A DNA stretch of 64,000 nucleotides from an uncultured Thermoplasmata archaeon (GCA_963838955.1 CAWISZ010000004.1:401979-465978); one strand, 5' to 3'; positions 18,845-42,768 are shown, numbered from the stretch's first letter. Translations and numbers: made by a program. The notes: a model not told the origin generated them from the sequence alone.

Positions 18845-19909
18845 CTACGGGCGGATCCGCTCGAGCGAGAGGAAGCGGACCTCGCCGTTCGCTCGGACCG
18901 CGGCGAGCAGGAACTCTTTGCGGACGCCCTGCGCCACCCGGACACCGCCGGAGATCTCGGGCCAGGAGGAGACGTGCTGGTCGCGGACCGCGCGCAGGAG
19001 GTACCGCGCATGCGAGTGCTCCGGGCTGCGTGGGTAGGCCCGGAAGTGCGCGCCGTACTTGAAGCCGGTTTTGACGACGAGGCCGCGCCCCCGCAACGCC
19101 GTGTACGCCGCGAGCCGTTCGGCGAAGTGCGGATCGAGCCGACGCGCGCGCCGGTGCAGACGGTCCTCGGAGACCGCACGACGGCTGGCCCCATCGCGTA
19201 CCAGGATCTGGCCGCTGTCGGCGAGGTACGCCGCCTCGATCAGGCTGAGCTCGAGCCGGTCCCCCAGCTTGCTTCCGTAGGCGAGGGAGCGCCCGAGCTC
19301 GTCCACGGCCCGCTCGTCGAACACGACGACCCGATCGTGGGAGAGCCACGCTTGCGCCGGCGTGCCGAGCCGGTGCGCGGGAAGCGCCCCGCGGGGCGAG
19401 GGACGGCGCACTCGGTAGTACGTCAGGTCCGACTCCTCATCGACGACCCCGAGGAGGAGCGTCTTCTTCGCGCTCGAGGCTCGCTCCGCGAGCTCGAACA
19501 GGTGGGCGAGATCGAACGGAGCGCGCTCGCTGATCGCTTCGATCCAGAATCGGGACGGCGTCTTGTTCAACACCCCGCCGCGGGGAAGGACTGTGAAGGC
19601 GACCGGAGGCGGGCTCGCGCGGACCACGTAGCCCCGCTGGCGGAGGTCCCGGTAGACCAGATAGCGGACCCCGAAGACCGGATCGTGGCGCGCGGAGCGT
19701 CGGAACACCTCGGGCCACGGAAGAGGTCGCGAGCGCGCGTCCACCCCCACCAGTCGCCCCATCTCGGCGAGGTAGACGCTGTCGTAGCGATCGAGCCCGA
19801 GGCCTCCGTTGGAGTCCGGAGTTCCGAAGTAGCCGCGTCCGTAGGTGGCGCTCGCTTCCGCGGGGTCCGAGATCCGGATCGTGCCGTCGGCCGCCACCCG
19901 GCCCGTCAC
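18845..19909 (-). CDS. endA: tRNA-splicing endonuclease, duplicated-domain form
   Basis: 354 aa. C-terminal catalytic motif VVKTGFKYGAHFRAY (G-x-K-Y-G-x-x-F-R-x-Y). The length indicates two tandem EndA-like units. Start overlaps the pyrE stop. Confidence 0.8.
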   Translation of the reverse strand: MTGRVAADGTIRISDPAEASATYGRGYFGTPDSNGGLGLDRYDSVYLAEMGRLVGVDARSRPLPWPEVFRRSARHDPVFGVRYLVYRDLRQRGYVVRASPPPVAFTVLPRGGVLNKTPSRFWIEAISERAPFDLAHLFELAERASSAKKTLLLGVVDEESDLTYYRVRRPSPRGALPAHRLGTPAQAWLSHDRVVVFDERAVDELGRSLAYGSKLGDRLELSLIEAAYLADSGQILVRDGASRRAVSEDRLHRRARRLDPHFAERLAAYTALRGRGLVVKTGFKYGAHFRAYPRSPEHSHARYLLRAVRDQHVSSWPEISGGVRVAQGVRKEFLLAAVRANGEVRFLSLERIRP

Positions 19910-39712: not shown

Positions 39713-39818
39713 TGGTGCTCCCGGCGGGAGTTTCCCCGCCCGGCGGTGAGCCGAGCGGATTTGAACCCGCGTCAGGGGCTCGAGAGGCCCCTATCCTTGA
39801 CCACTAGACTACGGGAGC
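39713..39818 (-). tRNA. tRNA-Glu(CUC) with a 30-nt non-canonical intron in the T-arm (intron about 39727..39756), encoded CCA
   Basis: Minus strand reads GCTCCCG-TA-GTCT-AGTGGTCAA-GGAT-A-GGGGC-CTCTCGA-GCCCC-TGAC-GCGGG-TTCAAAT-CC[30 nt]CGC-CGGGAGC-A-CCA. The 7-bp acceptor stem is perfect. The anticodon arm has a 5-bp stem and anticodon CTC. The T-stem GCGGG/CCCGC forms only once the 30-nt insert is removed. Confidence 0.7.
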
Positions 39819-39893
39819 GCCCGAGCCCGTGTTACGGGGCCGGCTCCTTGAGCCTTTCGACCGAATCGGCCCGTTCAGGATCTGCTCAGGAGC

Positions 39894-40844
39894 TCAGTCC
39901 TGCTCGGGCGAGACAGGGATGCACTGCGGGGCGTACCACCCAGCCCCCGAGAAGAGAGGCACGAATCCCATCGAGCGGTATAGATGCTGCGCGCGCGCGT
40001 TCCCATCGGTCACATTAAGTCGCAGGGGCGGAGCGGACCGGGTTCTCAGCGAGGCCAGAGTGGTCGCGATGAGCGCGGCGGCGATCCCTTGGCCCCGTTG
40101 GGCCGGGTCCACCATGACGTCGGCGAGGAGCGGATGGCCCTCCATCATCACGAGCACGGTGGCTCCCACGATCCGCCCCTCTCGCACCGCGACGAGCGAG
40201 TCCTCCGGGAGGAACGGGCCCCATTCGCCGCCGAGGAGCTTTTCCATCCCGCGCTCCGAGTCCCGCCCCGGATCCGGATCCTCCATGAACAAGTACCGGT
40301 CGAAGCGGCCAGCGTACGCAATGCGGTGCAAGGCTGCGAGTTCCGCGACATCCTCTAGGCGGATCGGCCGGCTCGCCGTTCCCTCCTTCAGCGCAGCGGA
40401 GGGAAGGGGTGATCCCTGCGGGAACTCCATCTCGGTCCGAGAGAATCGGCGGAACCCGAGCGGCTCCATCATCTCGACTTGTTGCGCCGGTTCGAGTCCG
40501 AGGAGATCTCCCGTAGAGAACGCGATGGGACCGTCCTTCGGAGATTCGGCGATCAGCCTTCGGAGGAACTCGCGGTACGCGGCCGGAGACCGCTCACCGG
40601 GACGGAGGTACAGAACGCCGACCCGGCGCGCGGGCAGCGGCATCCGGCTCCACGTCGCTACCCCGGCGAGCTCGGTCCCCTCGATCGCGAGCACGCCCAC
40701 GCTTTCACCGGTGTCGAGCGTTTGACGCAATCGGGCGATCCACTCCTCCGCAGGGAACCGTCCGCCGGCGATCTCCTGCAGGGCCCGGCGGCATAGCTGC
40801 CAGCCTTCGTCCGGCCGCTGGGAGAGCGGGATCGTCTCGAGCAT
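39894..40844 (-). CDS. GNAT family N-acetyltransferase (two GNAT-like halves)
   Basis: Acetyl-CoA binding motif QRGQGIAAALI. 316 aa. Confidence 0.65.
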   Translation of the reverse strand: MLETIPLSQRPDEGWQLCRRALQEIAGGRFPAEEWIARLRQTLDTGESVGVLAIEGTELAGVATWSRMPLPARRVGVLYLRPGERSPAAYREFLRRLIAESPKDGPIAFSTGDLLGLEPAQQVEMMEPLGFRRFSRTEMEFPQGSPLPSAALKEGTASRPIRLEDVAELAALHRIAYAGRFDRYLFMEDPDPGRDSERGMEKLLGGEWGPFLPEDSLVAVREGRIVGATVLVMMEGHPLLADVMVDPAQRGQGIAAALIATTLASLRTRSAPPLRLNVTDGNARAQHLYRSMGFVPLFSGAGWYAPQCIPVSPEQD

Positions 40845-40914: not shown

Positions 40915-41391
40915 GTGCGCGCTCGAGCTTCGTTCGGGCAGATGACTCCGCCGGTCAAGGCCCGCAGCGGGCACATCCTCCTCGATCCCAAACGCAGCTA
41001 CCAGGACCTCGTCCGGGTCTTCCCCGATATCTACAAGAAGGTCGTCGAGGCGAACCGCCCGTTCGCGAAGGAGGGCGAGACGATCCTGCCGGACGTCCTC
41101 TTGGAGGAGAACCTGCGGGACCTGCGCGCCGACCGCAAACCCGTCGGGTACAACCGGATCGATGCGTTCGGACTGAGGCTGATCTTCCCGATGGCGGACG
41201 ACCGTCGGGTCGAGTTCTACTTCACCAAGGCGCTGCGGGGGCAGGATATCGTCCACGTCACCGAGCAGGTGTCGGCGATGCTCCGCCGCCGGGGCATCAA
41301 GCACACGGTCGAATACGACCGATTGCCCCTCGGGCCCCCGCGGGGCCCACCGGGGATCATACTGGCCGGCGCCCAGCTCAGTTCGGGCTGA
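40915..41391 (+). CDS. Conserved hypothetical protein
   Basis: 158-aa ORF divergent from aIF5A. No family assigned. Confidence 0.4.
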   Translation: MRARASFGQMTPPVKARSGHILLDPKRSYQDLVRVFPDIYKKVVEANRPFAKEGETILPDVLLEENLRDLRADRKPVGYNRIDAFGLRLIFPMADDRRVEFYFTKALRGQDIVHVTEQVSAMLRRRGIKHTVEYDRLPLGPPRGPPGIILAGAQLSSG

Positions 41392-41398
41392 ACCCGCC

Positions 41399-41785
41399 TT
41401 ACGAACGCGTGATCTTCCGGCGGCCGAGCGCCTCGAGGTACTGGATCTCAGACCCGGGTTGGAGCTGGCCCTTCGTCTCCGCATCGAGGGCCATCGAGAA
41501 CGTCGCGTAGGTCTCCATGTCCATCAGCTGGACCTCCGTGTCCGTCAGGGACAGCACTTGGGCCTGGTGCTTGCCGATCATCGGGATCTGGACCTTGTGC
41601 TTGACGGGGTGAACCACGCTGCGCTTCGCTCCATCGAAGATGCCCACCGCGTCGATCCGAGATTTCGCTTCCCCATGCTTTCCCGGTTTGGAGGTCTGGA
41701 TGCTGAGGATCCGGCATGGCTCATCGTCGATGATCATGTACCGGCCTTCCTTGAGCTCGCGAACCTCCGCCTGCGTCCACGCCAT
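41399..41785 (-). CDS. Translation initiation factor 5A (aIF-5A)
   Basis: Hypusine-site motif [10 protein letters not shown]. 128 aa. Confidence 0.9.
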
Positions 41786-41986: not shown

Positions 41987-42415
41987 ATGACGGCGCGCGA
42001 TATGGCCCATTGCTACCGATGCGGATACGTCTGGGTACCGCGTCGATCCCGCATCCGGATCTGCGCTCGGTGCAAATCCCCGTACTACTGGTTCCCCAAG
42101 ATTCGGATCCCGACGCTCGGCTCGGGCCTAGGGGTCGACGAGATTATCGGGGAGCACCGGAGCGAGGTGCTCCGACTCGCCCGGATCTACGGAGCCCAGA
42201 ACGTCCGGGTCTTCGGTTCCGCTGCCCGGAAGGAGGCGACGCCCACCAGCGATGTCGACATTCTGGTCGATCCGATCCGGCCGGATCGCTACCGTCCGAT
42301 CGATCTCGCGCTGGCCCTGCGCAAGACGCTCGGACGGCCGGTAGATCTGGTTACCGAACGATCGCTCCACTGGCTCGTTCAACCGAGAGTGGTCGCGGAG
42401 GCCGTTCCTCTGTGA
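41987..42415 (+). CDS. Minimal nucleotidyltransferase (MNT) antitoxin with N-terminal zinc-ribbon
   Basis: CYRCGY...CARCKSPYY is a four-Cys ribbon. NTase motif VFGSAARKEATPTSDVDILVD. Confidence 0.65.
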   Translation: MTARDMAHCYRCGYVWVPRRSRIRICARCKSPYYWFPKIRIPTLGSGLGVDEIIGEHRSEVLRLARIYGAQNVRVFGSAARKEATPTSDVDILVDPIRPDRYRPIDLALALRKTLGRPVDLVTERSLHWLVQPRVVAEAVPL

Positions 42416-42768
42416 CGGATGCGGCGGACCGGAGCGAGGTCTATCTGGCTCGGGCCATCGAGCACCTTCGCAAGGGACTCCGGTACGCCGAACGAGGCCG
42501 ACGGGTCTACTTCGACCCGCGGAATCCGGACACGTACCTGCTCGTGGAGAGCGAATTACGCAAGGCGTTCGAGTCGTTGAACCGCCTCGGGCGGGCCTTC
42601 TGGAAGGCGAATCCCATGATTCCCCGCGACCGAATCGGAGAGATCCGTCAGCTGTTGACTCACGATTACACCGATGTCGATCCGACGCTCCTCTGGGGAA
42701 TCGTTGCCCAAGAAGCTCGTCCTCTCTTGCGTCGGCTCGCCCGTGCGAAGACTCCGAAGTCGGGCTAG
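42412..42768 (+). CDS. HEPN-domain toxin (HepT/DUF86)
   Basis: R-x4-H-x-Y motif RQLLTHDY. GTG start overlaps the MNT stop (GTGA). Confidence 0.65.
   Translation: MTDAADRSEVYLARAIEHLRKGLRYAERGRRVYFDPRNPDTYLLVESELRKAFESLNRLGRAFWKANPMIPRDRIGEIRQLLTHDYTDVDPTLLWGIVAQEARPLLRRLARAKTPKSG

Follow-up and report, generated by a model that had tools for sequence, protein, structure and literature searches.

Does the tRNA-Glu(CUC) gene of an uncultured Thermoplasmata archaeon contain a true intron in its T-arm, and could an ordinary archaeal tRNA splicing endonuclease (EndA) remove it? The gene, 106 nt long, lies on the minus strand (39818-39713) of a 64,000-nt stretch of genomic DNA, which is referred to here as the window. 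An earlier note on this DNA had proposed a 30-nt intron in the T-arm instead of the canonical position 37/38. Such an intron is indeed real and conserved, and the gene that carries it looks functional.

Anatomy and detection of the tRNA-Glu(CUC) gene

The gene was delimited from its sequence and fold. Its acceptor stem (GCTCCCG/CGGGAGC) is a perfect 7 bp, and the 5' strand of this stem is followed by TA, a D-arm that reads GTCT-AGTGGTCAA-GGAT, and an A. The anticodon arm is GGGGC-CTCTCGA-GCCCC, with the anticodon CTC at 39784-39782 (minus strand), and a variable region of 4 nt (TGAC) follows. The 5' strand of the T-stem, GCGGG, occupies 39770-39766 and is directly followed by the T-loop sequence TTCAAA (39765-39760). 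These elements constitute the 5' exon (39760..39818, minus strand; tRNA positions 1-59), which was assigned from the sequence, the fold, and the near-invariant exons of 93 listed Thermoplasmata genes, with a score of 116.5 bits for covariance model R1. The 3' strand of the T-stem, CCCGC, is met only 30 nt beyond TTCAAA. The 3' exon (39716..39729, minus strand), which was assigned from the sequence, the fold and relatives, thus consists of T60, CCCGC (39728-39724), CGGGAGC (39723-39717) and the discriminator A (39716). A CCA is encoded after the discriminator (39713..39715, minus strand). Among the related genes listed, CCA is found at this place in 14 of 93, and CCT is the commonest triplet (39 genes); the genome-encoded CCA is therefore probably incidental and not a conserved genomic feature.

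The gene parts named in the earlier note (the 106-nt length, the acceptor stem, the discriminator A, the CCA and the anticodon arm) could all be confirmed in the sequence. The note had also stated that the T-stem pairs only if 30 nt are removed, and in folding this deletion gave a 76-nt tRNA with the standard cloverleaf. The predicted spliced junction joins GGGTTCAAA to TCCCGCC. The spliced sequence differs by 1 nt from that of an intron-less ortholog (locus L052), for which the Rfam tRNA model gives 65.5 bits.

Standard tools recover only a truncated version of the unspliced gene. ARAGORN reports a 67-nt tRNA-Glu(ctc) at 39745-39811, and Rfam reports a tRNA at 39747-39818 with 35.2 bits, three acceptor mismatches and one deleted T-loop base, so that the 3' end given by both is false and lies within the insert. 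Intron-less orthologs reach 65-68 bits on the Rfam tRNA model, versus 33-35 bits for the unspliced genes of the window and of locus L007. A permissive Rfam scan of the 64-kb window found this tRNA and no other RNA family.

Conservation of the insert in Thermoplasmata

Species-representative genomes were scanned with a pattern that combined the D-arm and the anticodon loop, and at least 120 loci were obtained. Among the loci listed, 93 are complete genes with Thermoplasmata-type exons, that of the window included. An insert of 26-32 nt follows directly after TTCAAA in 85 of these 93 genes (window included). In all eight intron-less genes the sequence is GCGGGTTCAAATCCCGC, identical to the product predicted for ligation. 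All of the 85 listed inserts differ in sequence, and the exons are nearly invariant. The inserts nevertheless share one plan: a free first base, a GC-rich hairpin, the motif [G/T]G[A/G][A/G], an A plus one base, and then an invariant T. Different inserts at the same site in at least 85 species are far beyond chance. The earlier note had suggested an alignment with the tRNA-Glu genes of related Thermoplasmata, and by this comparison the insert is conserved in at least 84 other species.

Two alignments were used to examine the structure of the insert. In a gap-free MAFFT alignment of 28 genes with 29-nt introns (A1), 95.3% of the cells were paired and seven of the nine hairpin pairs had changed on both sides; none of 500 shuffles scored as high. 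When 95 genes were aligned by a covariance model built from A1 (A2), all nine hairpin pairs had changes on both sides (141 cells), and 95.8% of the cells were paired versus 34-57% when the partners were slid, again with 0 of 500 shuffles as high; these pair counts are somewhat inflated because A2 was fitted to the model structure, and A1, which gives the same picture, is the cleaner test. RNAalifold independently recovered the cloverleaf, the closed T-stem and the hairpin from A1.

Several related searches were negative. A tRNA-Glu(UUC) with the same D-arm had no match in the metagenomes. When the window and the retrieved loci were searched for T-loop introns with a generic home-made scan, only chance matches in GC-rich DNA were obtained. 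ARAGORN reported no tRNA gene besides Glu(CUC) on the Thermoplasmata loci. Two of the contigs, L055 and L075, belong to the same MAG (JOPF208) and end inside the same tRNA-Glu gene with an identical overlap; they represent an assembly break at the intron-containing tRNA and not two gene copies.

Position and register of the intron

The window sequence alone is compatible with four registers. Because T-C-C follows both junctions, cuts after position 59, 60, 61 or 62 would give an identical product. The relatives and the geometry of the bulge-helix-bulge (BHB) motif resolve this ambiguity. The first base of the insert is variable (T in 34, G in 27, A in 23 and C in 1 of the 85 genes listed), and the T just before CCCGC, which becomes U60, is invariant in the relatives listed. 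The variable first base, the invariant T and the BHB geometry together place the intron at 59/60, that is, at 39759-39730. Insertion between 59 and 60 also agrees with the intron-less orthologs, which read TTCAAAT. The earlier note had placed the insert between positions 61 and 63 (the 62/63 register, 39727-39756), and this site is corrected here to 59/60. In a manual test for a strict BHB, the registers 60/61, 61/62 and 62/63 gave no central helix, and only 59/60 gave one.

The 30-nt intron (39730..39759, minus strand), whose boundaries are set by the intron-less orthologs and which has like inserts in at least 85 species, reads T CCGCTCGGC TCACC GCCGGGCGG GGAA AC. Its first base is the third base of the 5' bulge, and the terminal AC (39731-39730) provides the first two bases of the 3' bulge. 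The hairpin has 9 bp (39758-39750 with 39744-39736) and a loop at 39749-39745. The strand GGAA (39735-39732) faces U54-A57.

The proposed BHB fold and its central helix

In the BHB layout, the exon bases -6 to -3 from the 5' cut pair with the intron bases -6 to -3 from the 3' cut, and each cut falls after the second base of a 3-nt bulge. A fold of this kind around both junctions, which the earlier note had named as a check, can be drawn in the 59/60 register. The BHB core (39729..39765, minus strand) was assigned manually and was checked on 85 sequences and on alignments A1 and A2. In the central helix, 39765-39762 (U54 U55 C56 A57) face 39735-39732 (G G A A) to form U-A, U-A, C-G and an A.G mismatch. 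The 5' bulge consists of A58 A59 U (39761-39759) and the 3' bulge of A C U60 (39731-39729), with cuts predicted to follow 39760 and 39730. The T-stem, with its 5 bp stacked on the acceptor stem, serves as the outer helix, and the inner helix is the 9-bp hairpin, which runs inward from C61-G83 to the loop UCACC.

This arrangement was retained throughout. In all of the 85 genes listed, each strand has a 3-nt bulge (A58 A59 N on one, A N U60 on the other), and cuts after the second base of each bulge reproduce the intron-less ortholog sequence exactly. The 3-4-3 spacing, always with four central positions, is likewise kept in all 85. Three central pairs (U-A or U.G, U-A or U.G, and C-G) are present in every sequence listed, with A or G on the intron side.

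The fourth central position is the weak point. Opposite A57, the 85 species listed have U in 20, G in 64 (window included) and A in 1. The central helix is therefore fully Watson-Crick in 20 of the 85, and the number of sequences with a non-Watson-Crick fourth pair is about 64-66, depending on the alignment. G and U alternate at this position among close relatives in the tree of the neighbouring gene, which suggests that either state is acceptable. The first intron base and the fourth position are combined as C with G in none and as A with U in one of the 85 genes listed. This rarity of Watson-Crick partners for the first intron base fits a need to keep that base bulged.

With two U-A pairs, one C-G pair and one A.G mismatch, the central helix is weak. 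RNAfold replaced it with a 6x6 symmetric internal loop in the window copy, and the RNAalifold consensus has a 7x7 symmetric internal loop at this place. Relative to the minimum free energy, forcing the BHB conformer cost 0-5.3 kcal/mol (median 2.9). Our inference of the central helix comes from the complementarity, which is invariant, and from what is known of EndA's substrate; the thermodynamic prediction does without it.

The EndA encoded in the window

A tRNA splicing endonuclease of 354 aa is encoded at 18845..19909 (minus strand) and was assigned to the alpha'2 type by Pfam, NCBIfam and alignments. The Pfam families tRNA_int_endo_N and tRNA_int_endo match twice each within the 354 aa, indicating two tandem units, and NCBIfam models for tRNA splicing endonuclease also match the ORF. 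It can be aligned over both units with the alpha'2 EndA of A. fulgidus, where the catalytic Tyr, His and Lys correspond to Y246, H257 and K287. The N-terminal unit lacks the catalytic Tyr and His and has Leu and Ser/Pro instead. The catalytic triad Tyr-His-Lys thus exists only in the C-terminal unit, and the N-terminal unit is structural. The earlier note had described an EndA with two fused catalytic-type domains in this window; the enzyme is present with its two units, but only one of them is catalytic.

Residues 14-179 of the catalytic unit are colinear with residues 6-171 of M. jannaschii EndA, an enzyme of narrow specificity, with gaps of only one or two residues. Crenarchaeal alpha subunits have 10-18 extra residues before the shared anchor. 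The colinearity with the M. jannaschii enzyme indicates that a specificity loop of either the Crenarchaea type (CSL/L1) or the ARMAN type (ASL/L2) is missing. Judged from these alignments, the EndA is a standard alpha'2 enzyme, and it is presumably the one that removes the intron.

Because archaeal EndA recognizes the BHB wherever it is located, no special enzyme is needed for a 3-4-3 motif in the T-loop. The alpha'2 class is called narrow in specificity (PMC6379350, PMC5829648), and alpha2 (alpha'2) and alpha4 EndAs have been described as needing a strict 3-4-3 motif (PMC3239211, PMC4033280). The earlier note had argued that an endonuclease of relaxed specificity is needed. Our data do not require one, as the strict 3-4-3 spacing is kept and no specificity-loop insert is present.

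Locus, putative promoter and history of the intron

An ORF of 149 aa (40942-41391, plus strand) is conserved in a divergent orientation upstream of the tRNA gene in 88 loci, with a median identity of 71%. It matches no family in Pfam or NCBIfam, and in the standard ORF list it appears only inside longer overlapping frames. Among the 88 loci, five are intron-less, and this common neighbour indicates that the interrupted and uninterrupted genes are orthologs. In a neighbour-joining tree of the 149-aa protein, a single short protein with a midpoint root, a single clade comprises all of the 82 intron-bearing loci, and its sister clade consists of the five intron-less ones. The intron is found in every sampled member of the clade and is absent from the sister clade, a pattern that agrees with one ancient gain and retention ever after.

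A promoter-like element similar to BRE/TATA, CGAAAGGCTCAAGGAG, is located at 39844..39859 (minus strand), 26-41 nt upstream of the 5' end of the tRNA. Upstream of the intron-bearing genes, the consensus CGAAAGGCTCAAAGAG is kept at -39 to -24, with a TA near -14. The intron-less genes have TTAAATA-type boxes in five of eight cases and an element like GGGCCAAAAGGG in the other three. The upstream motif may well act as a promoter, and it is probably the lineage-specific BRE/TATA consensus of these high-GC archaea.

The members of the intron clade include Ca. Lutacidiplasma silvani AcS3-62 (L099) as well as numerous MAGs from soil and peat. The AcS and SubAcS genomes, which have a GC content of 67-71% and were described as Lutacidiplasmatales (PMC9287336), fall in this clade. 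The GC content of the window is 67%. Among the loci, L007 (a SPRUCE peat MAG) is most closely related to the window, and the two share 94% identity in aIF5A. In intron-less species, aIF5A is not adjacent to the tRNA gene. A gene for a GNAT acetyltransferase (39894-40844, minus strand) is located between the tRNA gene and the 149-aa ORF. It occurs at this spot only in the window and in L007 (66% identity), whereas the tRNA gene and the ORF are close together in most other loci; the GNAT gene has the look of a recent insertion. The window also contains, directly past aIF5A (41399-41785, minus strand), an ORF for an NTP_transf_2 nucleotidyltransferase followed by a HepT-like ribonuclease domain (41987-42768, plus strand), an arrangement like that of MNT/HepT toxin-antitoxin pairs.

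Other interrupted T-loops

The tRNA-Glu gene is not the only one in this group with a T-loop insert. A metagenome scan found tRNA-Ser(GCU) with inserts of 30-32 nt at 59/60 in at least ten high-GC (67-71%) soil and peat contigs, among them L141, L150, L162, L163, L170, L177, L187, L209 and L232. These inserts consist of a GC-rich hairpin with the ending GGAAAY known from the Glu genes; the A.G mismatch recurs as well. A thiolase gene adjoins each interrupted tRNA-Ser(GCU), and the named relatives of one such thiolase are in Thermoplasmata MAGs only. Homologous interrupted tRNA-Ser loci are present in the L241:5460-5590 region and in L242 (GCA_030038655.1, JASHSP010000054.1), the latter from a Thermoplasmata MAG of the JOPF series. 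These Thermoplasmata tRNA-Ser(GCU) loci indicate that the lineage, taken as a whole, has at least two T-loop introns, one in Glu and one in Ser.

A metagenome scan for the 59/60 signature, from which Glu(CUC) was excluded by design, yielded 52 further tRNA genes among the 120 matches listed, mostly from low-GC sediment archaea. Low-GC sediment contigs (L127-L238; e.g. L132, L143, L146, L135, L139 and L156) have tRNA-Asp(GUC) and other genes with 27-32 nt inserts at 59/60, and several of these genes carry one or two further introns in the D-arm or the anticodon region. In DPANN archaea (Woese-, Pace- and Nanoarchaeota), tRNA-Glu(CUC) genes have introns of about 80-120 nt at the canonical position (L013, L015, L016, L021, L046, L049, L062, L068, L076, L089, L113, L117 and L118). 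An internal motif, for example AGATGATAAC.TC.G or GTGATGTCGCTGAGAC, is common to the DPANN introns and is reminiscent of C/D-box or K-turn elements.

Proposed splicing and alternative explanations

We hold it to be highly probable that the tRNA-Glu(CUC) gene at this locus is functional and that an archaeal BHB intron of 30 nt interrupts it at T-loop position 59/60. Judging from the sequence, the insert is very likely to be spliced out, and the following course of transcription, helix formation, cleavage and ligation is proposed. The gene would be transcribed from the conserved BRE/TATA-like promoter, and the T-stem of the precursor would form the outer helix. U54 U55 C56 (A57) would pair with the 3'-proximal (G)GAA of the intron to form a central helix of four positions, while the remaining intron would fold into the 9-bp GC-rich hairpin as the inner helix. 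This would leave a 3-nt bulge on each strand, A58 A59 U on one and A C U60 on the other. The presumably homodimeric alpha'2 EndA (18845-19909) would then cut after A59 and after the last C of the intron, and an RtcB-type ligase would join A59 to U60, giving the T-loop UUCAAAU in a 73-nt body plus CCA.

The most serious objection concerns the enzyme. The intron may be real while the resident alpha'2 EndA is insufficient alone. On this view, in essence that of the earlier note, processing would call for a relaxed endonuclease, for another EndA paralog, or for assistance, be it from a chaperone or from the fold of the mature domain. The 64-66 sequences with a non-Watson-Crick fourth central pair and the absence of the central helix from the program-predicted folds speak for this view, as do the failure of the A. 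fulgidus alpha'2 EndA on a relaxed HBh' intron (PMC5829648) and the strict 3-4-3 requirement stated for the alpha4 and alpha2 types (PMC3239211, PMC4033280). However, both bulges and the four-position spacing are kept here, unlike in the published hBH, HBh' and BHL motifs, which lack a bulge. The alternation of G and U in close relatives suggests that both are equally workable with the same enzyme family, and the sole EndA in the 64-kb window is a standard alpha'2 enzyme without a specificity loop. We therefore regard an insufficient resident enzyme as unlikely, although it deserves some weight. The hairpin is stable and its structure is conserved, which could also be expected if the insert were retained and the mature tRNA carried a 30-nt hairpin in an enlarged T-loop. 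The T-loop/D-loop elbow is needed by every elongator tRNA, and a hairpin between 59 and 60 would break it. Moreover, EndA needs just the features conserved here, namely (K)GAA opposite UUCA, both bulges and an invariant U60, which would be useless to a retained hairpin, and the orthologs of the sister clade lack the insert; retention is thus very improbable.

It is scarcely credible that the locus is a pseudogene or a gene broken by a small insertion, even though standard gene finders give a truncated gene with a poor acceptor stem and the window has no other tRNA for comparison. The exons are invariant in the 85 species listed, while the insert changes freely with its fold kept; the promoter motif is conserved, and none of the sampled members of a large clade lacks the insert. 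These features point to purifying selection and not to decay. A remnant of site-specific integration, with a duplicated att site and a degenerate copy of the tRNA 3' end, might be suspected because GCGGGTTCAAATCCGCTCGGCTCACC loosely resembles GCGGGGAAACTCCCGCCGGGAGCACC in the window copy. The likeness is gone in the relatives, whose inserts are unrelated GC-rich hairpins, no viral contig was found that contains the tRNA 3' half with or without the insert, and the size of 26-32 nt and the BHB anatomy are unsuited to att duplication. Its probability is practically nil, and the comparative data from the inserts of relatives and from viral contigs rule it out. The preferred reading is therefore still a spliced BHB intron in a functional gene.

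Comparison with known non-canonical introns

The position 59/60 is a published intron site (PMC4090602, PMC3239211), and its processing was shown experimentally in ARMAN-2. In that organism (Ca. Micrarchaeum acidiphilum), 59/60 introns occur in pre-tRNA-Pro(GGG) and pre-tRNA-Cys(GCA); the former has a strict BHB, and the latter has a relaxed motif that is cut in vitro by the ARMAN-2 epsilon2 EndA (PMC3239211). The present intron resembles these in its insertion site, and the strict hBHBh' motif of ARMAN-2 tRNA-Pro also uses the T-stem as the outer helix. However, the epsilon2 EndA of ARMAN-2 consists of three units and has a specificity loop, and disrupted genes make up 56% of the tRNA genes in that organism. 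The system described here has a plain alpha'2 enzyme and an intron in tRNA-Glu(CUC) that is fixed across a large Thermoplasmata clade, usually with an A.G in the central helix. Together with the metagenome matches, the published sites make the 59/60 element a known and widespread one. The earlier note had called such introns rare outside lineages like the Thermoproteales; this does not hold, given ARMAN-2 and at least 52 more metagenome tRNA genes.

Introns located away from the canonical position in Crenarchaeota and Thermoproteales were reportedly described by Marck and Grosjean in 2003, Sugahara in 2008 and Fujishima in 2010. According to reviews, BHB introns occur there beyond 37/38, for example at 53/54, 56/57 and 59/60, and the BHB is transplantable (PMC4090602, PMC4033280). 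The BHB type, the position outside 37/38 and the site 59/60 itself are thus shared with the present intron. In contrast, the crenarchaeal introns are accompanied by an (alpha-beta)2 EndA with the Crenarchaea-specific loop, many relaxed motifs, multiple introns and signs of recent transposition, whereas the intron here looks old and stable at one site. The euryarchaeal 37/38 introns (A. fulgidus, 1RLV/2GJW; T. acidophilum, 2OHC) have the alpha'2 EndA, the 3-4-3 motif and the same predicted chemistry in common with this system, which differs from them in its location in the T-loop, in an exon strand that is the universally conserved UUCA, and in the A.G fourth pair of most species. M. kandleri pre-tRNA-Glu(UUC) has a D-loop intron at 20b/21 with an HBh' motif (PMC5829648). 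It is likewise a euryarchaeal tRNA-Glu intron outside the anticodon loop that is processed by an EndA without a specificity loop; however, it lacks one bulge, its enzyme is an (alpha-beta)2 EndA, and it is cleaved inefficiently in vitro, while both bulges are intact here.

Implications

The kind of element described here is well known, and the advance is incremental. In the searched literature on non-canonical tRNA introns, we found no report of T-loop introns in Thermoplasmata, and introns are unmentioned in the Lutacidiplasmatales paper and in a recent survey of Thermoplasmatota. Euryarchaea with an alpha4- or alpha2-type EndA have been described as having introns only at the canonical 37/38 position (PMC4090602), and Korarchaeum as the only alpha2 organism with non-canonical introns (PMC4033280). 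By location, the present clade is a clear counter-example to the rule that links EndA type to position 37/38; taken overall, it is a mild exception. As a joint statement, we lean somewhat towards a high-GC soil and peat clade that has fixed 59/60 introns in both Glu-CUC and Ser-GCU, mostly with A.G, and a plain alpha'2 EndA such as that in the window.

Because ARAGORN and Rfam give a truncated, low-scoring tRNA, tRNA-Glu(CUC) and probably also tRNA-Ser(GCU) may be mis-called or missed in these genomes. Mis-called tRNAs in abundant soil archaea would distort completeness checks that use the full tRNA set. With respect to evolution, this looks like a stable old intron, unlike the recent mobile introns of Thermoproteales. 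If the alpha'2 enzyme alone splices the intron, the generalization that alpha2 and alpha4 enzymes mean introns at 37/38 only would need revising, as would the view that EndA must acquire broad specificity before non-canonical introns can arise; alpha'2 enzymes would in that case be more tolerant than they are now said to be. The natural G/U variation at one position of the central helix would provide a clean test of how strict alpha'2 enzymes are.
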